A DNA stretch of 44,588 nucleotides from Patescibacteria group bacterium (GTDB lineage: Bacteria; Patescibacteriota; Patescibacteriia; Veblenbacterales; UBA10138): NCBI GenBank assembly GCA_043823825.1, contig JBDRTU010000052.1, positions 1 to 44,588 of the forward strand. The letters run 5' to 3'. Under the pieces are notes generated by a model. That model did not search any database. It was not told where the DNA came from and saw only the letters and a list, made by a program, of their open reading frames with translations. A program made the translations under genes and the position numbers. This document shows, in pieces, positions 2,509-36,483 of the stretch (the first letter of the stretch is position 1; each line of letters opens with the position of its first letter).

Positions 2509-2511
2509 AAT

Positions 2512-2551
2512 TGGGTGGCTGTTGGGATTTGAACCCAAGCTAAAGGCTCCA
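2512..2551 (-). pseudogene. 3' half of a diverged tRNA-His-like gene
   Basis: Reverse complement TGGAGCCTTTAGC-TTGGG-TTCAAAT-CCCAA-CAGCCAC-CCA gives a T arm and acceptor 3' strand with no 5' half. Confidence 0.6.
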
Positions 2552-2597
2552 TTCAACCCGCCAATGGTTATAGTATAAATATAGAGAGATACAAGGG

Positions 2598-2669
2598 GGT
2601 GGCCAACGGGAATCGAACCCGTATCAGTGGCGCCACAGGCCACTGCTCTACCACTGAGCTATGGCCACC
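2598..2669 (-). tRNA. tRNA-His(GTG)
   Basis: Cloverleaf with anticodon stem GTGGC/GCCAC, loop CTGTGGC, G-1 and C discriminator. Confidence 0.95.
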
Positions 2670-5023: not shown

Positions 5024-5301
5024 TGCCCCCGAGAGGAATCGAACCTCTATTAGCGGCTCCCGCCTACGCTTAAGGCTTCGGTGGGCAAGTAGAAGTCCGC
5101 AGTTCCCCGCCTGCCATCACCTATGCCCTTGAGAGGAATCGAACCTCTATCAGCGGCTTAGAAGTCCGCGGTTCTATCCATTGAACTACAAGGGCACAGG
5201 GCATGGCGGGCAGATATCTATTATCCGCCTCCATATTTTAATATTACGGCGGATCCTCGCCGAAGCTTAAATAAATTAGCGGAGGCGGAAACTACGAGGG
5301 C
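5024..5301 (-). pseudogene. Outer tRNA-Arg(TCT) interrupted by three palindromic insertions
   Basis: Segments 5290-5301, 5215-5223, 5090-5105 and 5024-5058 join to a 72-nt tRNA that differs from the inner copy at 7 positions. Confidence 0.85.
5124..5195 (-). tRNA. tRNA-Arg(TCT), intact and nested in the interrupted copy
   Basis: GCCCTTGTAGTTCAATGGATAGAACCGCGGA-CTTCTAA-GCCGCTGATAGAGGTTCGATTCCTCTCAAGGGCA. Confidence 0.95.
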
Positions 5302-24578: not shown

Positions 24579-25925
24579 CTAATTATTATAAAGTTGCTGG
24601 TGAATTAGGTGGATATCTTGTTGAATAGTACCATCATTATTTAAAGCTGCAGAAATTTTAATATAAGCATGCATAGCAGTGGTGTGGTCGCGATTACCTA
24701 ATTCTTGACCAATGGTTGGGTACGAGGCTTTAATTTCGTTTCTCATTAAATACATAGCTATTTGGCGTGGGGTTACTAACTGTTTTTTCCTACTTGCGCC
24801 CAATAAATCCTCTATCTTAACGTCATAATATCTAGATACCACGTTAATTATTTTTTTTGTGGTTAGGGCCTGACCTCGTTCGTGTTGGCTGTTGGTTTGT
24901 AAAATGCTTTTGACTGAGTCTAGGGTGGACGGCTGATTATTTAATTGATGATAGGCAATTATTTTATTTAAAGCACCCTCCAATTCCCTAACATTGTTTT
25001 GTATAGTGGTAGCTAAATAATTAATAATTTGTCCATTGAGAACGCAGTTTTTTTCTTTACATTTAGCTTCTAAAATTGCTGTTCTGGTTTCTAAATCCGG
25101 ACTTAAAATATCAGCCAGCATACCCCATTCAAAACGTGAAACTAAACGATGCTCCAGAGTAGGAATGGCTTTAGGTGGGCGGTCAGAGGTTATCACTATT
25201 TGTTTATTGGCTTGATGAAGATTATTAAAAGTATGAAAAAATTCTTCCTGCGTACCCTCTTTGCCAGCTAAGAATTGAACATCGTCGACTAATAAAGCAT
25301 CCACGCTACGATATCGGTTTTTAAATTTTTCCATAGTGCCCTTACTAATTGCTTCAATAAATTCATTTGTAAATTTTTCGCAGGTTATATACGATACTTT
25401 TTTATTGGGATCGCTTTTTACTATTTCATGGCCAATGGCTTGTAATAAGTGAGTTTTACCCAAACCTGCCCCACCATAAAGAAAAAGTGGATTGTAAGTT
25501 TGTCCGAGCGATTGAGTAACTGCTAGTGCTGCGGCACGTGCCAACTCATTGTTTTTACCAACAATAAAACTATCAAAAGTATAGTTAGGGCTCAAGCCAA
25601 TATTATTAACTGGTTGTTCTTGATTAAAAGTTGCTACAGAAGGTGCTGCTGAATTGTAATAATTTACACGTGCTTTATTAATATTAACTTGGTAGGCAAT
25701 TTGTTTAACAGATTGATTGGTGATATTGTTGAGGGCTTTTAAAATAAAGTCGTGGTATTTTTTTTCTAGCCAGGCTTTAGTAAAAGCATTGGGTACGGCT
25801 ATGACAATATGACCATCCTTACAAGAATCAATGTAAGTGTTTTTAAACCAAGTGGTGAAATTAGCTTTACTGATTAATAGCTCTAATTCACCAAGTGTTG
25901 ATTGCCACAATTGATCATTAGTCAT
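24579..25925 (-). CDS. dnaA: Chromosomal replication initiator
   Basis: YNPLFLYGGAGLGKTHL, DDVQF, QEEFFHTFN, RELEGAL, RDHTT. Confidence 0.99.
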   Translation of the reverse strand: MTNDQLWQSTLGELELLISKANFTTWFKNTYIDSCKDGHIVIAVPNAFTKAWLEKKYHDFILKALNNITNQSVKQIAYQVNINKARVNYYNSAAPSVATFNQEQPVNNIGLSPNYTFDSFIVGKNNELARAAALAVTQSLGQTYNPLFLYGGAGLGKTHLLQAIGHEIVKSDPNKKVSYITCEKFTNEFIEAISKGTMEKFKNRYRSVDALLVDDVQFLAGKEGTQEEFFHTFNNLHQANKQIVITSDRPPKAIPTLEHRLVSRFEWGMLADILSPDLETRTAILEAKCKEKNCVLNGQIINYLATTIQNNVRELEGALNKIIAYHQLNNQPSTLDSVKSILQTNSQHERGQALTTKKIINVVSRYYDVKIEDLLGASRKKQLVTPRQIAMYLMRNEIKASYPTIGQELGNRDHTTAMHAYIKISAALNNDGTIQQDIHLIHQQLYNN

Positions 25926-26863: not shown

Positions 26864-27598
26864 ATGAAGCAATTTTTTACAACTATTTTCTATCAACCCT
26901 TATTTAATTTATTGGTTTGGCTTTATAATTTAGTGGGCGGCAATATTGCGCTGGCTATTATTTTGTTAACTGTGATTATTAAATTAGTTCTATACCCTTT
27001 TTCTCGCCAGTCGCTCAAATCTCAAAAAGCTTTGCAGGAAATTCAACCTAAAATTAATGAGTTAAAAATAAAATATAAGGACGATAAAGAAAAAATGACC
27101 AAAGAAATGATGCAGCTTTATCGTCAGGAAAAAGTAAACCCCTTCTCGTCTTGTCTACCGCTGTTAATCCAGCTGCCGTTCTTAATAGCAGTTTTCCAAG
27201 TTTTTCGAACTGGTTTAAACTCTGACAGTTTTGAATTACTATATTCTTTTGTGGCTAGCCCAGGGCACCTCGATGCTTTTATGTTTTCCTTTGATTTAAG
27301 TCAGCCGGTTTGGTTGTTTGGAGTTTTGGCTGGTATTGCTCAGTACTGGCAAACTAAAATGTTAATGAGTAAAAAACCAGCGGTTAAAAGCGATGGCTCT
27401 AAAGATGAAGGTATGGCTGCTACTATGAATAAACAAATGCTGTATTTTATGCCAGTCTTAACTGTGGTTTTTGGCTTTAGTCTGCCGGGTGGTTTGATGC
27501 TTTATTGGTTTATGAATACTATTTTAACCGTTGCTCAACAGTATTTAATGTTTGGCAAAAAGAAAGTTATCCCCGAACCAAATGTTACAACTCAGTGA
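26864..27598 (+). CDS. yidC: Membrane protein insertase YidC/Oxa1
   Basis: IQPKINELK, VNPFSSCLPLLIQLP, LYW. Confidence 0.95.
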   Translation: MKQFFTTIFYQPLFNLLVWLYNLVGGNIALAIILLTVIIKLVLYPFSRQSLKSQKALQEIQPKINELKIKYKDDKEKMTKEMMQLYRQEKVNPFSSCLPLLIQLPFLIAVFQVFRTGLNSDSFELLYSFVASPGHLDAFMFSFDLSQPVWLFGVLAGIAQYWQTKMLMSKKPAVKSDGSKDEGMAATMNKQMLYFMPVLTVVFGFSLPGGLMLYWFMNTILTVAQQYLMFGKKKVIPEPNVTTQ

Positions 27599-27854
27599 GA
27601 TAAAAAATTTACCAGTTTATACTAAAAGCGGCAAACACTTAGGTCGGGTAACTGATGTAGAGATTGATTCATTAAGCCAGCTAATTTTACGTTATCAAGT
27701 AAGCCATTGGCCCAAGATTCCGGGGCTATGGAAAGGCCGGCTGTTAATTGCGCGTGAGCAAGTTATTTCTATTTCTAAAAGCGCGATGATTGTGGAAGAT
27801 TCGTTATCGCCCGATTCCGCTTCTCGTGTTGAAGCCACACCAGTAGCAGGTTAA
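27582..27854 (+). CDS. PRC-barrel domain protein
   Basis: LPVYTKSGKHLGRVTDVEID; ATG at 27582. Confidence 0.8.
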   Translation: MLQLSEIKNLPVYTKSGKHLGRVTDVEIDSLSQLILRYQVSHWPKIPGLWKGRLLIAREQVISISKSAMIVEDSLSPDSASRVEATPVAG

Positions 27855-27913
27855 GGTGATTTACAAAAAAGAGGTAGATTACCAAATCATCTCTTTTTAA
27901 TTTTTTATTATAA

Positions 27914-28681
27914 TTAGATTAACCGCTTCTTGCCCACAATCACTCGCAGGTGTTGGGCCGCCACCTTAATGGTTACTGGCGTTTTTAGCACTCGCTCGCC
28001 ATCTACCACCACTGGCAAGGAGTTGCCCGGCGAGGTAATTCTGCATGATTCTATCACCAGCTGTGAACCGGGAATGACTTTTTTACTTAAGCCTAAAAAA
28101 TTTTTCTGCGGTAACGGCGTTAGTACAGTTTCAAACATTTTATTTTTGGGATTAGCCAACTTGGTTTGTCCATTCAATTCCCAGATATCTAAATTATTGA
28201 TTTTAATATTATGTGGATGGCTCAAAGCCACTGTAAATTGTTCATCGCAACTTACAGTTGGTGTTCCGGCGATGGTAACTGAACGAATAAAATATTGGTT
28301 ATTAACTTTACCAAGATCAATTTGCTCAACAATACGACTGGAAAGTACGTGACAAGCCAGTACTCCAATCGGAATACCTAGAAGTTTAGCAATTGATTGA
28401 TCTTTTTCTCCGATCGGTATAATACCCAAAGTAACATTTTGTTTTTTGCTGGCTAAAGCAATTGCCGCCTTGCTTACTGTTAAGTCGTTTCCCACTGTTA
28501 CAATTGTATCGGCTCCGTCTTTTAGTGCTGACTCAATTAATTCTTTAGCACTTTTTAAAATAGTCAAACGGCCAATTCGTCCTTGAATACCCAAATCAGT
28601 AAGAGTATTTTCAATTCTTACCAAAGAGTTAGCATGAACACGATCGCTAGTGTAGGTGTCGTACAAGTAAAAATACGGCAT
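27914..28681 (-). CDS. Diacylglycerol kinase catalytic-domain family protein
   Basis: VGNDLTV, LGIIPIG, IDLGKVN, VDGE. Confidence 0.8.
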   Translation of the reverse strand: MPYFYLYDTYTSDRVHANSLVRIENTLTDLGIQGRIGRLTILKSAKELIESALKDGADTIVTVGNDLTVSKAAIALASKKQNVTLGIIPIGEKDQSIAKLLGIPIGVLACHVLSSRIVEQIDLGKVNNQYFIRSVTIAGTPTVSCDEQFTVALSHPHNIKINNLDIWELNGQTKLANPKNKMFETVLTPLPQKNFLGLSKKVIPGSQLVIESCRITSPGNSLPVVVDGERVLKTPVTIKVAAQHLRVIVGKKRLI

Positions 28682-28713
28682 AATTAAGGCCGTTAACTAA
28701 ATTCCATTATTCA

Positions 28714-29121
28714 TTAATTAGAACTACTTTTTTTATTGACCTTAGCAACTGGGCTGGGGTTAGGAGCTTCTCCCTTTTCTAACACTCCCATTTGGCAACT
28801 ACCATTTAACTGGGCACCTTCTGCTACCACTAAAATTTTCGCCACAATATTACCCATAATTTTACTAGTAGGCATTAACTCCAATTTACCTGTTACAGCC
28901 ACATTACCTTTAACAAAACCAGCTACTTGGGCATTAGCTGCTTTTACATTAGCCATTATTTCCGCTTTTTCCCCTACTAGTACATTATGTTGAGTTGAAA
29001 TACTACCCTCCACCTTACCACCAACAATAATATTACCACCCCCTACTAATCCACCCTTTACTTTAATGGACGGACCGATAATCGTTTCGGAGCCGGCTGA
29101 GTCGTTGTCTTTTGAAAACAT
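28714..29121 (-). CDS. Bactofilin (polymer-forming cytoskeletal protein)
   Basis: ETIIGPSIKVKG and Gly/Val beta-helix repeats ending GAQLNGSCQM. Confidence 0.92.
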   Translation of the reverse strand: MFSKDNDSAGSETIIGPSIKVKGGLVGGGNIIVGGKVEGSISTQHNVLVGEKAEIMANVKAANAQVAGFVKGNVAVTGKLELMPTSKIMGNIVAKILVVAEGAQLNGSCQMGVLEKGEAPNPSPVAKVNKKSSSN

Positions 29122-29282
29122 AGGCTTATAAAAATTAATGACTTAGAGTACAGCTATTTTAGTATGTTTTCACTTCTTCGTCAAAAGCGATTGTCATAAA
29201 CTTACTCTTTAGGTAGGCTTAAGACGGGATGCATTATTACTTGGCCCTTTTACAATTTTCCGATTAAATAAGATGATATTTT

Positions 29283-29542
29283 GCCCTCGTAGTTTCCACC
29301 TCTGTTTTTGATAGTTTTTACTTCGGCGGATCCGCCATAATTATTGTAAAATAATGGAGGCGGACAATGGATACCTGCCCGCCATTGCCTGAGCCCCCAT
29401 AGCTCAACGGATAGAGCAAGCCCGTCCTAAGGGCGAGATGATGGTTCAATTCCGTCTGGGGGTATAGGCGATGGCAGGTGGGGAAGACTAATTAAGTTTT
29501 CACCCTTCGGGTGACCACCCGCAGGGTGGCGAGCTGGGGGCA
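29283..29542 (+). pseudogene. Outer degenerate tRNA-Arg scaffold with palindromic insertions (paralogue of 5024-5301)
   Basis: GCCCTCGTAGTT (29283-94), CAATGGATA (29365-73), GAA (29483-85) and acceptor-like TGGGGGCA (29535-42); same two insertion points as the 5-kb locus. Confidence 0.75.
29393..29464 (+). tRNA. tRNA-Arg(CCT), nested
   Basis: GCCCCCATAGCTCAACGGATAGAGCAAGCCC-GTCCTAA-GGGCGAGATGATGGTTCAATTCCGTCTGGGGGTA. Confidence 0.9.
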
Positions 29543-29546
29543 GTGA

Positions 29547-29620
29547 GGGCCCATAGTTAAGTGGTATAACGGTGCATTCGCATTGCACAGGCGGGAGTTC
29601 GATTCTCCCTGGGTCCACCA
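29547..29620 (+). tRNA. tRNA-Ala(CGC)
   Basis: Stem GTGCA/TGCAC, loop TTCGCAT, G3-U70, encoded CCA. Confidence 0.93.
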
Positions 29621-29761
29621 GACAGGAAATGGCAAGCAAGAGGCAACCGCCTCGCTTCGCTCGGCGACCAAATCGTAAGATTTTCTGGGCGAAAAAAGCA
29701 GTTGGCGATTCTGCGAAATGCGTCCGAACTATCTACAATATAGACCACCAAGAAAAGATCA

Positions 29762-30643
29762 TTATCCTAAGGGTACAGTGTCTGAGACTGTTTTTTGTTT
29801 AGGGTATTTTTGTCGCAGTTTTTCAATATCTTTAGCTTGCATTTGCCAGCCAATAGCGCCTAAGTTTTCTTTCAAATGATCAATGGTGCTGGTTTTGGAA
29901 AGTGTTATTACCTTAGCTTGAGAAGTAAGCCAATTAATAGCAACTTGGGCTGGTGTTTTTTCATACTTCACGCAAATATCCCTTAGTATTTTAGGTATTC
30001 GTTTTAGTAATTTACCCTTACCAACTGGCCGCCAAGCTGTTAATAACACATCATTAGCTTGGCAGTAATCCAGTAAACCTGTGACTTCGGGTTCTCTAAA
30101 CTCCAAACTATAATGTACTTGATTGCAAACAATTTTATTTTTCGTATAGCTTTGCGCTTCAGCTAAATGTTCTTTTGTAAAATTAGATACTCCAATATTT
30201 TTTATAAATTTTTGTGCTACTAATTCATCTAAAGTTTTAATAGTTTCTTTAAGGGGAATACCAGGGCTGTATTGGTGCAAAAGATATAAATCTAAATAGT
30301 GAATACCCAAACGTCCTAAGCTGGCTTTGCATGATTTAATCAAGTGATTGTGTTTAAAATGATCAGGCGAGGCTTTGGACACAATAAACAGTTTTGAGCG
30401 GTCATAATTTTTGATCGCTTTCCCTAATAATGTTTCGGCATAACCGTTAGCGTAAACTTCAGCCGTGTCAAAATGTGTAACGCCCAGCTCAATCGCCGTG
30501 CGAATTGCCTTAATATCTTTAACATCATTATTTAAAGGATTATGGCTAAAGCGTCCGCCCATTTGCCAAGTGCCTAAACCATAAATTGGCATAGCAAAAC
30601 CATTTTTTAATTGTTTAGAAGGTATTTTCATATACTCAAACAC
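29762..30643 (-). CDS. Aldo/keto reductase
   Basis: GLGTWQ, FDTAEVY, YLDLYLLH, IGVSNF, NQVHY; start may be the ATG at 30631. Confidence 0.95.
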   Translation of the reverse strand: MFEYMKIPSKQLKNGFAMPIYGLGTWQMGGRFSHNPLNNDVKDIKAIRTAIELGVTHFDTAEVYANGYAETLLGKAIKNYDRSKLFIVSKASPDHFKHNHLIKSCKASLGRLGIHYLDLYLLHQYSPGIPLKETIKTLDELVAQKFIKNIGVSNFTKEHLAEAQSYTKNKIVCNQVHYSLEFREPEVTGLLDYCQANDVLLTAWRPVGKGKLLKRIPKILRDICVKYEKTPAQVAINWLTSQAKVITLSKTSTIDHLKENLGAIGWQMQAKDIEKLRQKYPKQKTVSDTVPLG

Positions 30644-30653
30644 ATAATTCTTA

Positions 30654-30672
30654 TGGTACCATTCGTACGAAT
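30654..30672. repeat. 19-bp direct repeat, copy 1 (candidate ArsR operator)
   Basis: TGGTACCATTCGTACGAAT, containing the palindrome ATTCGTACGAAT. Confidence 0.8.
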
Positions 30673-30932
30673 TAGACCAGTTTTAGCAGAGTACGTAGCG
30701 CGCGCGAAGGAGTGGGAGTTAAAAAGTAAAATATTTGTAAGCCGCTTTGCTCGCGTTCTACAATGTCAGCCGAGGCCAGTACAGCCAGATGTTTAGAGGT
30801 AGAACGGAAAGAAAGCTTAATCGTGGCCGCAATTTCACCAACTGAAGCTGGTTGATGGGTTTTTAGGTGCTTAATAATTGCTAAACGACGACGGTTAGCT
30901 AGAGCTTTAAGTATTTTTTCCAGTTCTCTCAT
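30672..30932 (-). CDS. ArsR/SmtB family transcriptional regulator
   Basis: KALANRRRLAII, SVGEIA, TSKHLAVL. Confidence 0.9.
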   Translation of the reverse strand: MRELEKILKALANRRRLAIIKHLKTHQPASVGEIAATIKLSFRSTSKHLAVLASADIVEREQSGLQIFYFLTPTPSRALRTLLKLV

Positions 30933-30959
30933 AGTTAAATTATATCAGATCAATACTAT

Positions 30960-30978
30960 TGGTACCATTCGTACGAAT
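30960..30978. repeat. 19-bp direct repeat, copy 2
   Basis: Identical to 30654-30672. Confidence 0.8.
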
Positions 30979-30982
30979 AAGA

Positions 30983-31693
30983 CTAGGGTTTTTGCGAGGG
31001 TAGGGTGAGCCAGCGGCGGCGTTCGATTTTGGGAAAATGTTCAATAGCATACCTGAGGGCAGTGCGGGGCATATCCTTAGCATTTTGTTTTAAAAATTTT
31101 ACTAACACTTTTTTATCTCTCTTTCCTACTTCTCTCAGCATCCATCCTACTGCTTTATGTATTAAATCGTGCTGATCTCTTAACAATATTTTAGAGATTT
31201 TTAAAGTATGATCAAATTTATGATTTCTGATAAATTGAAAAGTAGAAATAATAGCAATGCGCCGTTCCCAAATGTTTTTGGAACGCGCTAACTTTGTTAG
31301 CAAGCTGGTATTTCGGCTAAGTAAATAGGCACCAACTATTTTATGAGCAGATAAATCAACTAAATCCCAGTTGTTTATATATCGTATATTTTTTAAATAA
31401 AAGTTATAAATTTTTTGTTTAAGTTTGGCATCTCCGTGCTCAAAATTGTGAACTAAAATAAATAAGGCTATTTGTCGTTCCTCGTGGAACATTGATTTTA
31501 AGAGTTTAGAAATGTCGTTAAATGCTAGGTTTTTATACTTTTGTGCTAAAGTACGCGATTGTGGCACTGTTAGGCCTAAAAATTTATCACCCTCGCCATA
31601 TTGACCCTTTCCAGTTTTGAAAAACCATTGCGAAACTTTGGCCCGCGCTGGGCTAGCTTGCTTTCTTATTTCTTTTTTTATACATTTTAACAT
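30983..31693 (-). CDS. DNA alkylation repair protein (AlkD-like)
   Basis: FFKTGKGQYGEGDKFLG, NNWDLVD, HKAVGWMLRE, MPRTALRYAIE. Confidence 0.92.
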   Translation of the reverse strand: MLKCIKKEIRKQASPARAKVSQWFFKTGKGQYGEGDKFLGLTVPQSRTLAQKYKNLAFNDISKLLKSMFHEERQIALFILVHNFEHGDAKLKQKIYNFYLKNIRYINNWDLVDLSAHKIVGAYLLSRNTSLLTKLARSKNIWERRIAIISTFQFIRNHKFDHTLKISKILLRDQHDLIHKAVGWMLREVGKRDKKVLVKFLKQNAKDMPRTALRYAIEHFPKIERRRWLTLPSQKP

Positions 31694-33119: not shown

Positions 33120-33836
33120 ATGCTCATGAGCAAGAAGCATGAGATAACTCTGCCGGCCGAGCAGGCCAGCGAACTTATGGCCCCGATAGTATCGGTGGTC
33201 ATGAGTACACAACCCACAGATGCGCAGTACTGGATAAGCCGTAAACGCAAGTTTGAGGCCGAACTGCGCAACCTCATCTGTCGCGGTACCGTTCCCTTCG
33301 CCGATCTCATTGCCGAATGGGAAAAGTTTTATCTGGAGGTATTTGGACTGGATAAGAATTTTTCCAGTCTCCGTATTCCGAAACCGCAGGAAGGTTTCAG
33401 CCGTCCTATCATTGAGGCGGGTGAAATTACCAATAGCCGGGTTTTTGCCAAGTGTAAGGAATTATTTCCAGCCAGGAAGTACGCCGACAATCTGGACACT
33501 GTTACTAATATCACTCCGTGGACGCCTGGTGATCGCGCTTATTGGATCCGCGATCGGGTGGAGGCTGATGAAGAGCTGAAGAATATTTCGACCAACAATT
33601 TGGCTAACCAGAACATTGTCGGCATCACCTTGAAGGGTCGGCTTCTGTTTGAGGTCAAATATTTTAAGGAAACTGGCCAGCATCTGGATATCCAGAACAT
33701 TACACTCTGTTCCGGTTCCCGCGATGCCGCTGGTGATGTGCCGAGCGTGCGCTGGAACGACGACGAGCTGCACGTCGGTTGGACGAGTCCTGGCATTCAG
33801 GACGACCGCCTGCGTTCTCGTGCAGTAGTTTCGTAA
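33120..33836 (+). CDS. DGR target protein 1 (C-terminal variable region, probable C-type lectin fold)
   Basis: RBS TAAGGAG; last 40 codons match TR; paralogue of target 2 (WIRDRVEAD, YFKE.G.HLDIQ.ITLCSGSR). Confidence 0.93.
   Translation: MLMSKKHEITLPAEQASELMAPIVSVVMSTQPTDAQYWISRKRKFEAELRNLICRGTVPFADLIAEWEKFYLEVFGLDKNFSSLRIPKPQEGFSRPIIEAGEITNSRVFAKCKELFPARKYADNLDTVTNITPWTPGDRAYWIRDRVEADEELKNISTNNLANQNIVGITLKGRLLFEVKYFKETGQHLDIQNITLCSGSRDAAGDVPSVRWNDDELHVGWTSPGIQDDRLRSRAVVS
33714..33833 (+). repeat. DGR variable repeat VR1
   Basis: 120 nt, 17 mismatches to TR, all at TR adenines (11 G, 4 C, 2 T). Confidence 0.97.
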
Positions 33837-33908
33837 CCCTTGTAACTTTTTACTTTTTCCCTTAACTCACTGATTTATTTTATTCACTTTTCAAGAAAGG
33901 AACAGCTC

Positions 33909-34640
33909 ATGGAAAAGTATGAGACAGTCCTGGTGTCAGCTTCGGTTGACCAAGTTAAAGATGTGGTCGCTACACTGTGCCAGGCCATCCCCAAAGGGAT
34001 GACGTCAAGTGATGCCCAGTCCATCAGCGGGAAGAAAGGCAAATTTATTGCCGATATCAGGCAGGTGTTTGCTAAGTACTCAACCGCTTCGGTGCTCGCA
34101 AGCGTCCTGTTGGAATGGCAGGATTTGTGGAAAGAGTTTGGTGTCTCTCTGGACTTATCAGAGCTCGTGATTCCGGAATGCCAGGAGGGCTTTGATCGCC
34201 TGTTGGTGATACCGCAAGGCATCGGTGCCGAGCGGGTATTCCAGAGGTGTAAATCCACTTTCGGTGCCTGGAAGTATACCGACTGTGGTCTGGATGAAGT
34301 AGTGCCGACCAATGACCGCACGAACATCAAGACCTACGAGGTTTGGATCCGCGATCGGGTGGAGGCTGATAAAGAATTGAAAAATATGTCAGCCAACACT
34401 TTGGCTCAAGCCAAGATTCTGGGGGTTACCCTACTTGAACGGCTCGTGTATGAGTGGAAGTATTTCAAGGAGTCGGGTAAGCACCTGGACATTCAGAAAA
34501 TCACGCTGTGTTCCGGTTCCCGCGATGCCGATGGTAATGTGCCGTGCGTGTACTGGCTCGGCGGCAAGCTGCGCGTCCATTGGGCGCCTCCTGGCTATCA
34601 GTTCGACAGCCTGCGTTCTCGTGCAGCAGTTTCTCTTTAA
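33909..34640 (+). CDS. DGR target protein 2
   Basis: RBS AAAGGA; C-terminal VR2; paralogue of target 1. Confidence 0.93.
   Translation: MEKYETVLVSASVDQVKDVVATLCQAIPKGMTSSDAQSISGKKGKFIADIRQVFAKYSTASVLASVLLEWQDLWKEFGVSLDLSELVIPECQEGFDRLLVIPQGIGAERVFQRCKSTFGAWKYTDCGLDEVVPTNDRTNIKTYEVWIRDRVEADKELKNMSANTLAQAKILGVTLLERLVYEWKYFKESGKHLDIQKITLCSGSRDADGNVPCVYWLGGKLRVHWAPPGYQFDSLRSRAAVSL
34515..34633 (+). repeat. DGR variable repeat VR2
   Basis: 119 nt, 20 mismatches to TR, all at TR adenines (8 G, 6 C, 6 T). Confidence 0.97.
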
Positions 34641-34693
34641 ACTTAATTCTTTTTTCCTTTTTCAAAATCACGAAGAAAGGAGAAGAATTTATC

Positions 34694-34730
34694 CCCCAAG
34701 TTGTGCGGAGTACAACTTGGGGATTTTTTT
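34694..34730 (+). terminator. Hairpin with GGA loop and T-run downstream of VR2 (terminator and/or DGR homing stem-loop)
   Basis: CCCCAAGTTGTGC-GGA-GTACAACTTGGGG-ATTTTTTT. Confidence 0.75.
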
Positions 34731-34935
34731 ATATAATTAATATGGCTACTACAATCGGTCCGCCTTGGGTGGATAGCGGTTTGCCAACATAACGAAACTG
34801 CTTACTTTGTTCTAGAGAATATTTCTATAATAATTTTATAGGATGCTTCTAAACACAGCCCGCCGACGGCGGGATAACTCAAGTAACTTTGTAAAAGGTT
34901 GCTGGCGAATATGGACGGGGCAAGGTAATAAAACG

Positions 34936-35055
34936 GGTTCCCGCAATGCCGATGGTAATGTGCCGAACGTGAACTGGAACGACGACAAGCTGAACGTCAA
35001 TTGGACGAATCCTGACAATCAGAACGACAACCTGCGTTCTCGTGCAGAAGTTTCG
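34936..35055 (+). ncRNA. DGR template repeat (TR)
   Basis: 120 nt, 34 adenines, 11 AAY codons in the target frame; identical to both VRs at non-A positions over the aligned length. Confidence 0.97.
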
Positions 35056-35056
35056 G

Positions 35057-35091
35057 AAAAACACCTGGTCTTAATTAGGCTTGGTGTTTTT
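35057..35091. terminator. Hairpin between TR and the 3' end of avd (bidirectional terminator or DGR spacer structure)
   Basis: AAAAACACC...GGTGTTTTT. Confidence 0.6.
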
Positions 35092-35478
35092 ATTTACTAT
35101 TATTAAGGTACTTTATCCAACCATTAGTCATTTTAGAAAGATTTTGTAGGTCGGTTTCCATGTCCAAATAGGTTTTACTTTCTACAATGTGTAAATTGTT
35201 ACTTAGACGAATTAATCTTTTTAAAATTTCTAATTTTATTCGCAGTGTTTTAAGCGGGGCATTTTTTTGGCTTCCAGATTCAAATGATGCAGTAATACAT
35301 AATTCTATAGTTTCTAGACAGATATTTTCAATTTTTAAGTATATTCCATAATGGTCGCGCTTCGTCATTTTTGGTCCCAACTGGTAAACTGTTTGGTAGA
35401 AAGTTGTTAGTTTATGCACCAAAGGCACGTCAAAAGTGTCGGGGGGGGGGGGGGCGATACTGGAAAAGTTTTGGTCAT
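35090..35478 (-). CDS. avd: Avd-like accessory four-helix-bundle protein; ATG at 35478 out of frame at C14 (currently open only from GTG 35428)
   Basis: DVPLVHKLTTFY, KRDHYGIYLKIEN, LEILKRLIRL, GWIKYL; lies between TR and RT. Confidence 0.85.
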
Positions 35479-36483
35479 AATATTTTTGAAAAAATAATTA
35501 ATTTAGAAAATTTGTTTTTAGCTTGGCGAGAGTTTAGGCGCGGTAAACGAAGTAAATTAGATGTACAGAAGTTTGAATTTAAGTTAGAAGACAATTTATT
35601 TACTATTCATGATCAGTTGGCCAGTGGGATTTATGTAAATAACCCCTATGTTTCTTTTTATATTACCGATCCGAAATTGCGGCATATTCATAAAGCTAGT
35701 GTTAGGGATAGAGTAATAAATCAGGCGGTATTTCGTGTGTTATATCCTATTTTTGATAAAGTTTTTGCATATGATTCGTATTCTTGTCGGGATAATAAGG
35801 GGTTACACAAAGCAGTTGATAGATTAGAGTTATTTTTAAGGCGCGTTAGTCGAAATTATCAAGAGCCAGTTTGGGTGCTTAAATGCGATGTTAAGAAATT
35901 TTTTGATTCTGTTGATCAGGAGCGATTATTTGGCTTTATTTGTAAAAGATTATTTGACAGACGAGCGTTGGATTTGGTTGAGAGAATAATTAGTAGTTTT
36001 TCTGTTAGTGCTGGTAAGGGGTTGCCGCTAGGAAACGTTACCAGCCAGTTGTTCGCCAACATTTATTTGAATGAACTGGACCAGTTTATCAAACACCAGT
36101 TAAGGGTAAAATATTATTTGCGGTATTGTGACGATTTTATTATTTTAGATAATGGTAAAAAATATTTATCTGGATTAATTGATAAGATTAACGAGTTTTT
36201 AAAGAATAATTTAGAGCTGGAATTACATCCAAGAAAAATTATCATTAGAAAATACCGGCAAGGTATAGATTATTTGGGTTATGTTTGTTTGCCACATTAT
36301 CGGGTGCCGCGCACCAAAACTAAACGGCGGATATTAAGGGTATTGGTGGGGAAAAGTTATTTAGTTAAACAGGGGCGTTTTAGTCAAACGATTTTTTATA
36401 GCTCTCTCCAATCTTATTTTGGAGTTTTAAAACATTGTCGAGGGTTTAAGGTTAAGCAGCAGATTTTATCAGTAATTAAATAG
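35414..36483 (+). CDS. DGR reverse transcriptase; ATG at 35414 out of frame at G14 (currently open only from non-ATG starts such as TTG 35371/35404)
   Basis: RDRV, KCDVKKFFDSV, GLPLGNVTSQLFAN, YCDD, IDYLGY; no in-frame Met anywhere in the ORF. Confidence 0.95.
35441..35454. repeat. G14 homopolymer inside the avd/RT overlap
   Basis: 14 consecutive G in an AT-rich genome. Confidence 0.95.

Follow-up and report, generated by a model that had tools for sequence, protein, structure and literature searches.

Anatomy of the tRNA-Arg(CCT) locus

The window analysed here, a stretch of 44,588 nucleotides from the genome of a Patescibacteria group bacterium, contains at positions 29283-29542 a gene for tRNA-Arg(CCT) that sits at the apex of a short hairpin element, and this element in turn lies within the remains of an older tRNA-Arg gene. 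The genome (G000 in the following; related genomes are numbered from G001 onwards and contigs are given as C-numbers) is a metagenome-derived assembly of 889,506 bases in 66 contigs with 38.8% G+C and is 97% complete. The window represents the origin region of this small bacterial genome, with dnaA (24579-25925, minus strand), dnaN, rnpA, yidD and yidC, and the closest named relatives of its DnaA are found in Patescibacteria (Magasanikbacteria, Doudnabacteria, 'Patescibacteria group') at about 52-62% identity. Positions 27000-29679 were also recovered, with zero differences, on an independent 27,099-nt contig from run X1. The parts of the locus, referred to as copy 2 to distinguish it from a related locus (copy 1) elsewhere in the window, are the following.

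29249-29277, plus strand: promoter-like site (TTTACA, 17 nt, GATGAT) that agrees with the consensus at 9 of 12 positions, its end 5 nt upstream of the first base of the outer gene
29283-29294, plus strand: outer tRNA-Arg remnant, 5' acceptor strand to nucleotide 12, GCCCTCGTAGTT
29295-29364, plus strand: hairpin insert 1, TCCACCTC...GGAGGCGGA, after nucleotide 12 of the outer gene
29365-29373, plus strand: outer tRNA-Arg remnant, D-loop, CAATGGATA
29374-29482, plus strand: hairpin element of 109 nt with conserved ends CCTGCCCGCC...GGCAGGTGGG at D-loop position 20/21, stem CCTGCCCGCCAT..ATGGCAGGTGGG, inner tRNA at the apex
29393-29464, plus strand: inner tRNA-Arg(CCT), CCA not encoded (ARAGORN; Rfam, 54.3 bits)
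29483-29499, plus strand: outer remnant, GAA (3' side of the D-stem) and an AT-drifted stretch at the place of the anticodon arm
29500-29529, plus strand: double-hairpin element, TCACCC-TTCG-GGTGA and CCACCC-GCA-GGGTGG
29530-29542, plus strand: outer remnant CGAGCTGGGGGCA, 3' acceptor strand and discriminator (…TGGGGGCA), pairing with 29283-29289
29547-29620, plus strand: tRNA-Ala(CGC) with encoded CCA, 4 nt past the end of the outer gene

All features that the initial annotation of this locus had listed are present. What is left of the outer gene are nucleotides 1-12, the D-loop and the 3' acceptor strand, and the places of the anticodon and T arms are taken by the AT-rich stretch and the double hairpin; comparison with copy 1 suggests that the AT-drifted stretch is a decayed anticodon arm. 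In both copies ARAGORN and Rfam call only the inner genes, and each of these, Arg(CCT) and Arg(TCT), is the sole bearer of its anticodon among the 41 tRNA genes of the genome. In the predicted fold the inner cloverleaf tops a stem of about 17 bp that is closed by pairing of the outer acceptor strands, and the two loci fold with z = -6.8 and -4.9 relative to shuffled sequences. Rfam contains no family matching the wrapper, as the surroundings of the inner tRNA had been called, nor the cargo-less elements or their hosts on C62, on C17 and in G013. Since a promoter scan of the region found 3 sites against 0.9 expected, the site at 29249-29277 is weak evidence for a promoter; it is the likely promoter from which the old gene was read and from which the nest as a whole and tRNA-Ala(CGC), probably co-transcribed with it, would be read now.

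Copy 1 lies on the minus strand and is organized in the same way.

5024-5301, minus strand: outer tRNA-Arg(TCT) with three interruptions
5289-5224, minus strand: hairpin insert 1
5214-5106, minus strand: end-defined hairpin element
5195-5124, minus strand: inner tRNA-Arg(TCT) (ARAGORN, Rfam)
5089-5059, minus strand: 31-nt insert at anticodon-loop position 37/38

The insert sizes are 66, 109 and 31 nt in copy 1 and 70, 109 and 30 nt in copy 2, and the two copies align over 291 columns with 79% mean column identity, the stems being kept and the AT-rich loops having diverged. The pair of wrappers described in the initial annotation is real, including the divergence of the loops. When the three inserts of copy 1 are removed in silico, ARAGORN calls a 72-nt tRNA-Arg(TCT) that shares 65 of 74 aligned positions with the inner gene; the GG of its D-loop is changed to AG. 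The outer part of copy 1 is thus a complete tRNA gene minus its inserts, and not part of a single dedicated wrapper. Likewise, the 5' piece common to both copies is the usual local start of a tRNA-Arg gene, as the 12-mer GCCCTCGTAGTT begins not only copy 1 (5301-5290) but also the free-standing inner Arg(GCG) gene on C31. Instead of a single structure, the wrapper is a composite of pieces of an older tRNA-Arg gene, an end-defined element and two other GC-rich hairpin elements.

These two additional elements are repeats in their own right. Relatives of insert 1 are found at C29:3459-3507 (92% identity over 49 nt), where the copy lies between 77-bp direct repeats of the 5' half of tRNA-Ser(TGA), on C22, in a 5S rRNA remnant of G011, and, in other genera (G015, G016, G002), in tRNA-Ile remnants, again at the 12|13 site. 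The double hairpin has four further copies in the genome (C64:13854-13886, C46:6122-6153, C5:149-176 and C2:25140-25166) and also occurs in outer Arg genes of C41, there at the 12|13 site, and of G016.

As had been remarked, both nested tRNAs point away from dnaA; this is ordinary co-orientation with replication, and a special meaning of the geometry was rejected. The promoter scan gave no site for copy 1, and by eye a TTGACA is seen about 50 nt upstream. Directly after the outer Arg(TCT) gene, at 5023-4950 (minus strand), follows a fragment resembling the D-stem and anticodon arm of tRNA-Arg(TCT) and then a GC hairpin, which may be a third layer. The GTG start listed for the HAD-hydrolase open reading frame (5022) is probably too far upstream.

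A family of hairpin elements defined by their ends

Is the hairpin around the inner tRNA peculiar to these two genes? A search pattern consisting of CCTGCCCGCC, 20-220 nt and GGCAGGCGGG, with one mismatch allowed and the reversed pattern as control, matched 10 times in G000 against 0 for the control. In 61 related genomes the end pattern was found in 29, the reversed control giving 1 match over all 61; the element-bearing genomes comprise 15/20 of the same family, and the others are of the same class. The highest counts are 50 matches in G015, 15 in G010 and 11 in G002. Most elements are 98-105 nt long and have an AT-rich interior, which is conserved among the copies of a genome; a bare hairpin of 40-44 nt is found in some cases, and the compact tRNA-bearing form measures 104-126 nt. 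The latter contains no open reading frame, and its ends are inverted, not direct. The cargo-less copies of G000 are intergenic, one of them inside the loop of a terminator-like hairpin, and of the short copies fetched from relatives several occupy loops formed by inverted repeats on either side, whereas an intact tRNA gene is not the site of any of them. The proposal of the initial annotation that the locus harbours a tRNA-capturing element is thereby largely upheld, with the modification that the stem represents the ends of a multicopy hairpin element, which usually holds AT-rich filler and sometimes a tRNA.

The ends of 17 compact tRNA-bearing copies from 13 genomes, with at least 8 tRNA species, were aligned. 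The terminal 10-mers are near-invariant, a C.A mismatch and a U.G pair are present in 17/17 copies each, and changes on both sides were found in none of the ten pairs; in the acceptor stem of the enclosed tRNA, which served as control, 6/7 pairs covary. The terminal stem is thus kept as sequence without compensatory change, which fits recognized element ends and not a mere RNA helix. The initial annotation had alternatively suggested a structure selected for processing or regulation of tRNAs decoding AGA and AGG. This suggestion is not supported, and a restriction to these tRNAs is rejected. Against it speak the missing compensatory change in the terminal stem, the same architecture around many other tRNAs and 5S rRNA, and the occurrence of both orientations of the tRNA relative to the ends (20 versus 5). 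A one-off duplication in decay, the reading attached to a wrapper that is absent from relatives and does not covary, agrees with the data as regards covariation of the terminal stem but not as regards distribution, as the wrapper is present in relatives.

The element is short, non-coding and multicopy and has terminal inverted repeats that are inverted-identical at 8/10 positions; it is a MITE-like family (MITE, miniature inverted-repeat transposable element). The target-site duplication of MITEs was not found, and when the element is cut out exactly from end to end, Ile, Trp, Asn, Thr and Arg genes read as tRNAs again. Other hairpin families with different ends (CCCCGTAT...ATACGGGG, CCCGCCCCACC...GGTGGCGGGG and TCCGCC...GGCGGA) play the same roles. 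One cargo-less element (G013:C2:197650-197900) lies within a region of about 200 nt, the flanks of which pair over about 19 nt; the region has no Rfam match and may be an unknown structured RNA.

Cargo, host gene and insertion site

Twenty-five distinct tRNA-bearing copies were found, with Arg (five anticodons), Thr (three), Val (two), Ala (two), Leu, Ile, Asn, Trp and Gly as cargo, and one further copy bears 5S rRNA. The tRNA has the same sense relative to the element ends in 20 of the 25 copies and is reversed in 5. In the four reversed copies for which the outer gene could be oriented the inner gene is nevertheless co-directional with it, as in the sense copies that were read, and wherever the outer anticodon is readable it equals the inner one (14 clear cases by eye, 0 mismatches). 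Similarly, an intact 5S gene of G012 (87 bits) lies within such an element adjoining a partial 5S match, and G011 has an intact 5S gene within an interrupted 5S gene.

Insertion occurs exactly and in loops: at D-loop position 20/21 (Arg, Thr, Val, Leu), in the anticodon loop at 34/35 (Asn, Trp), 35/36 (Ile in G000 and G051, Thr in G047) or 37/38 (Val in G011), and in the T loop (Gly). No target duplication is seen, and loops of terminator-like hairpins are hit as well. In 19 copies the arms flanking the tRNA add up to 29-41 nt, in four to 95-121 nt, and in two to 51 and 73 nt. These sums correspond to the two cargo-less forms, the short one of 40-44 nt and the long one of about 100 nt, minus a small loop, indicating that the tRNA occupies the hairpin apex. 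The nested architecture is also present in genomes of few contigs (3 in G005, 3 in G047 and 6 in G013).

CCA is encoded in 23 of the 41 tRNA genes of G000. The six inner genes in elements with exact ends (Arg TCT, CCT and TCG; Leu CAG; Val GAC; Ile GAT) do not encode CCA and have paired flanks, and the Thr(GGT) gene within an element with variant ends does encode it. Among the remnants, outer Ile, Val, Leu and Gln encode CCA and outer Arg do not.

Extent of nesting and decay of the outer genes

Each of the 41 tRNAs of G000 was compared by BLAST with its own 350-nt flanks, and matches to neighbouring genes were dropped. Fragments of the same kind were found for 13: Leu GAG, TAA and CAG; Val GAC and CAC; Thr GGT and CGT; Ser TGA; Arg GCG, TCT and CCG; Gln TTG; and Ile GAT. 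Three more, Arg CCT, Arg TCG and His GTG, were recognized by eye, which brings the total to 16 of 41 tRNA genes in or beside remnants of their own kind. The architecture thus surrounds tRNAs for Arg (TCG, GCG and CCG besides the two described above), Leu, Val, Ile, Gln, His, Thr and Ser in G000, and Asn, Trp, Ala, Gly and 5S rRNA in relatives. The His case is another feature of the window.

2510-2669, minus strand: tRNA-His(GTG) (2669-2595), then a right-end-like remnant, then what is left of an older tRNA-His (T arm and 3' acceptor strand, about 2560-2510), by eye

The outer genes are damaged to different degrees. In G000 the anticodon stem of the outer Leu(CAG) is gone and its acceptor stem contains 2 mismatches, outer Arg(TCG) and Val(GAC) lack about nucleotides 21-34, outer Leu(TAA) lacks the anticodon arm, outer Gln has a broken anticodon arm, and of outer Ser(TGA), Leu(GAG) and Arg(CCG) only 5' pieces are present. 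In the otherwise complete outer Asn gene of G042, T54 of the T loop reads C. In a blind set from relatives, 3 of 9 tRNA-bearing elements leave an outer gene that ARAGORN calls after excision (Trp, Asn and Thr-CGT). At six loci picked for looking complete, 6/6 outer genes are callable with identities to the inner gene between 54/74 and 68/75, and the T loops of Asn and Thr are damaged. Such a range from intact to fragmentary is expected of unconstrained remnants of differing age.

For four isoacceptors, tRNA-Asn, Phe, Lys(TTT) and Gly(TCC), no genes are present in the G000 assembly, and a scan for T-arm motifs together with RF00005 (E up to 1) for interrupted versions gave only the outer remnants of known genes. 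These isoacceptors are probably located in assembly gaps, and nested repeats at tRNA loci may break assemblies.

The RNase P RNA gene (G000:C26:14156-14604), of which a second copy is not present, is 449 nt long compared with a model of 367 positions and contains a TCCGCC...GGCGGA hairpin, a CCCCCGCC...GGCGGGG hairpin and an insert of 44 nt where the model has 7, in the style of the tRNA inserts. As this gene is single-copy, hairpin inserts must be tolerated there or removed.

Order of replacement

Evidence on the order of events comes from tRNA-Ile(GAT), for which loci from 30 genomes were read; the gene was found in 29, and 15 loci are nested or bear remnants. The congeners G001 and G014 share the same sequence upstream of tRNA-Ile. 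In G001 the Ile gene, with acceptor strand GGGCGGC, is intact and already lies within an older remnant. In G014 this same gene is interrupted at 35|36 by a cassette with a gene of the GGGCATG type, and the interrupted gene later acquired three point changes and a hairpin in the T loop. The opposite nesting, the GGGCGGC type inside the GGGCATG type, is found in G002, G004 and G011. Moreover, the outer Ile gene of G005 has the same unusual D loop and T arm as the free gene of G009, and the inner gene of G005 is of another type. In G000 inner and outer Ile genes are identical at 66 of 78 positions, nucleotides 8-48 being the same and the differences consisting of compensated acceptor and T-stem pairs, T-loop bases and the final base. 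Inner and outer Arg(CCG) genes of G031 agree at 54 of 74 positions, both are callable, and their differences are compensated as well. The pattern of the Ile genes is unlike that of a local duplicate with a freely drifting outer copy and resembles an incoming gene from another lineage.

A probable self-rescuing insertion cassette

How could a working tRNA gene come to lie inside the wreck of its own predecessor? On the whole we regard it as probable that the locus is a nested tRNA gene in which a hairpin cassette bearing a working tRNA-Arg lies inside an older tRNA-Arg gene, and that such self-rescuing insertion cassettes are general in the lineage. On this reading a small non-coding hairpin element (CCTGCCCGCC...GGCAGGCGGG) hit the D-loop of the resident tRNA-Arg gene. 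Since the element carries a complete tRNA-Arg at its apex, the insertion would destroy the old gene and at the same time supply its replacement. The old gene would then have decayed and gained insert 1 at the 12|13 site and the double hairpin in place of the T arm. Transcription would start from the promoter of the old gene and run through the wreck. The inner tRNA would be presented on a stem of about 17 bp stacked on its acceptor stem, RNase P cutting at the 5' side and an endonuclease at the 3' side. Alternatively, the 3' end could be trimmed after RNase III has opened the stem; in either case CCA would be added afterwards and the outer RNA would be debris. Genes for several of these steps are present, namely rnpA in the window, RNase P RNA on C26, RNase III (138 bits) and a CCA-adding enzyme of the PolyA_pol family (99 bits).

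Cassettes of several hairpin families have probably replaced resident genes repeatedly, partly with copies that would have come from other lineages. That cassettes have been met only within genes for the same RNA, and pointing the same way as these, could be the result of selection, because other landings in essential single-copy genes would be lethal and an unexpressed cargo would decay. More tentatively, and with rather more doubt than confidence, it may be proposed that protein-less hairpin cassettes with a whole tRNA or 5S gene spread within and between Patescibacteria lineages into loops of the cognate genes. Addiction would come about by replacement and leave layered fossils behind, much of the turnover of genes for translation RNAs would occur by insertion, and the loop-into-loop rule would reflect an undescribed structure-directed route through single-stranded DNA or RNA. 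The lack of target duplication, the landing in loops, the use of either orientation, the conserved but imperfect ends and the lack of a protein all point away from DDE transposition and towards such a route.

Several observations weigh against the cassette. The match for RNase Z is weak (27 bits versus a cut-off of 293), leaving the 3' step without an identified enzyme. Of the sampled words, a tenth occur in one metatranscriptome from the same study; its contigs on 27000-31000 touch only the double hairpin (29498-29530, where the flanks are unlike), some of tRNA-Ala and a single piece of an adjacent open reading frame, so that neither a joint nor an end is found on the wrapper. Y1 transposases, present in 28 of 61 genomes, do not track element counts, and there are none in G015 with its 50 copies or in G000. 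The open reading frames beside clustered copies in G015 and G010 are ordinary (TPR, TraG-like ATPase, trigger factor, 23S-IVS protein, LAGLIDADG fragment) and include no convincing mobiliser. The model gives no account of how so tiny an element gains a matching tRNA. Several outer genes, among them G000 Ile and G031 Arg, still fold perfectly, and they could be functional. In addition, the related genomes are non-independent samples, and a polymorphism of empty and filled sites within a population was not seen; we therefore infer mobility of the element from copy number, distribution and the comparison of G001 and G014. Finally, inner and outer tRNA-Ile of G035 share all arms, acceptor and T arms included, with a 5-nt AGCAC repeat flanking the insert, for which local duplication is a better fit than import, and the tRNA-Thr(GGT) locus (G000:C15:12811-13346) has two 5' and two 3' remnants interleaved in the order A, B, inner, A, B, which suggests gene conversion or repeated rearrangement. 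Together these two loci indicate that local duplication or gene conversion happens too.

Two proteins encoded close to elements may be mentioned here. A homologue of the '23S rRNA intervening sequence protein' in G010 (C2:10983-11384) overlaps one element end, and a LAGLIDADG endonuclease fragment in G015 (C5:43138-43635) lies about 500 nt from an element pair; both may be coincidence.

Other explanations

Could nests form on the spot? GC-rich hairpins might provoke template switching or repair errors that copy a tRNA into the hairpin apex, after which the outer sister decays and no mobile cassette is needed. This would account for the identity of cargo and host and for their co-orientation without selection, and it agrees with the G035 locus, with the 77-bp direct repeat of tRNA-Ser(TGA) around the hairpin element on C29 and with the identical T arms of inner and outer Arg(TCT) in G000. 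Nevertheless, we consider it unlikely as the general explanation: many stem pairs are different between inner and outer genes in G000 Ile and G031 Arg(CCG), every one of these differences being compensated, and the outer gene, supposedly free of constraint, is still foldable; the outer gene of G014 equals the intact gene of G001 and its inner gene is of another type, with the order reversed in G002, G004 and G011; and the same conserved ends surround at least 8 tRNA species in 13 genomes. Less probable still is that the wrapper, or at any rate its long stem, has been selected as an RNA structure for guiding or regulating the maturation of the tRNA inside it, also beyond the tRNAs for AGA and AGG. 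The stacking of the stem on the acceptor stem, a fold far more stable than that of shuffled sequences, the paired flanks of inner genes that lack CCA, the presence of RNase III and the conservation of the stem across genera would all be consistent with such a role. The terminal stem, however, does not covary and retains a mismatch, most copies of the element are free of tRNA and lie in intergenic hairpin loops, both orientations occur, 23 of the 41 tRNAs manage without an element, and the outer tRNA pieces are given no role.

That both tRNAs are made from one transcript, the inserts being introns or intervening sequences removed from the outer tRNA, could be argued from the exact insertion into loops without target duplication, which includes the canonical 37/38 site, and from the outer genes that are complete after excision. 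At the locus itself the outer gene has neither anticodon nor T arm, and most outer genes are truncated or mutated at invariant positions. EndA (PF01974) and RtcB (PF01139) gave 0 matches each in the 97% complete genome, with archaeal controls positive, and group I introns (RF00028) no match in the window at the gathering threshold, so no route is seen for splicing the outer gene, and in copy 2 nothing is left to splice. The inserts are 31-109 nt long, and reading of the sequence, with no dedicated search, revealed no bulge-helix-bulge motif and no 3-nt bulges at the junctions; the helix of the element starts at the junction itself and its irregularities are one C.A mismatch and one U.G pair. 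We therefore regard the production of two tRNAs as very improbable. Misassembly at conserved tRNA sequence has to be considered for a metagenome assembly of 66 contigs, and it is the least credible explanation of all, to be practically dismissed, as the same architecture recurs in diverged form in dozens of independent assemblies, some of only 3-6 contigs, and the independent contig from the source run agrees with the locus.

Relation to known systems and implications

Intervening sequences in bacterial 23S and 16S rRNA genes, including the rRNA insertions of the candidate phyla radiation (CPR), are extended hairpins in loops of structured RNAs. The hairpins described here are similar in that they lie exactly in loops (D, anticodon and T loops, and also in RNase P RNA), cause no target duplication and are patchily distributed, and a gene for RNase III is present. 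Unlike rRNA, which tolerates being in pieces, the interrupted tRNA or 5S RNA is abandoned here and the insert brings a whole gene, and the ends are common to hundreds of copies. The decay of the host genes argues against a retained function of the host RNA as in the case of rRNA intervening sequences. With MITEs and REP/REPIN sequences the elements have in common that they are short, non-coding, multicopy hairpins of inverted repeats, often within intergenic hairpins, but they differ by the missing target-site duplication, by functional tRNA or 5S cargo and by landing in loops of RNA genes, and neither Y1 transposases nor the genes beside clustered copies gave an autonomous partner or a link to a RAYT-like protein. 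Integrative elements and prophages that target tRNA genes follow a comparable logic, as the insertion would kill the tRNA gene, the element restores its function and the old remnant stays behind; those elements, however, are kilobases long, encode an integrase, duplicate only the 3' part of the tRNA gene and create direct repeats, whereas here about 105 nt without any gene of that kind carry a whole tRNA between inverted ends and insert into a loop.

Disrupted tRNA genes of archaea and red algae, which include genes with multiple introns and split and permuted genes (PMC4033280), can likewise have several exact inserts per gene at D, anticodon and T loops. Their inserts, according to the passages of this review that we consulted, are spliced by EndA at bulge-helix-bulge motifs and the halves are ligated, so that the interrupted gene works; here the interrupted gene decays, and the organism is a bacterium (dnaA, rnpA, yidC). 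In the same passages group I introns are the sole interruption of bacterial tRNA genes, and the word 'nested' does not occur in them. Group I introns resemble the present inserts in interrupting bacterial tRNA genes in the anticodon loop and in spreading horizontally (PMC4033280). The inserts in the window do not match this class and are far too short for the catalytic core (P3-P9, about 200 nt or more). Full-text searches of open papers and preprints, judged by the result listings and the opening lines of abstracts, turned up no description of a nested tRNA arrangement.

tRNA genes are usually held to be among the most stable, vertically inherited genes. In this minimal genome about two fifths of them are found inside the wrecks of predecessors, and in sister genomes the replacement can be seen under way. 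Should the cassette model be true, it would represent a new selfish strategy in which an insertion brings its own rescue, and a horizontal route for turnover of core translation RNAs. It would also mean that tRNA finders report the inner gene only, that remnants can be mistaken for introns or split genes, and that work on integration sites and phylogeny based on tRNA genes is confounded in CPR genomes. Furthermore, it would offer a handle on how GC-rich hairpin repeats move in genomes with almost no transposases.

Other features of the window

Three reverse transcriptases are encoded in G000, one in the window, one on C36 and one on C7. The region of the window that contains the first has the following features.

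35371-36483: open reading frame for a reverse transcriptase (RVT_1, 86 bits)
33714-33836, 34515-34637 and 34936-35058: three copies of a 123-nt repeat, 79-85% identical

Two copies of the repeat are located at the 3' ends of open reading frames without Pfam matches and the third just upstream of the reverse transcriptase, which is the layout of variable and template repeats. The region 33120-36483 is a probable diversity-generating retroelement.

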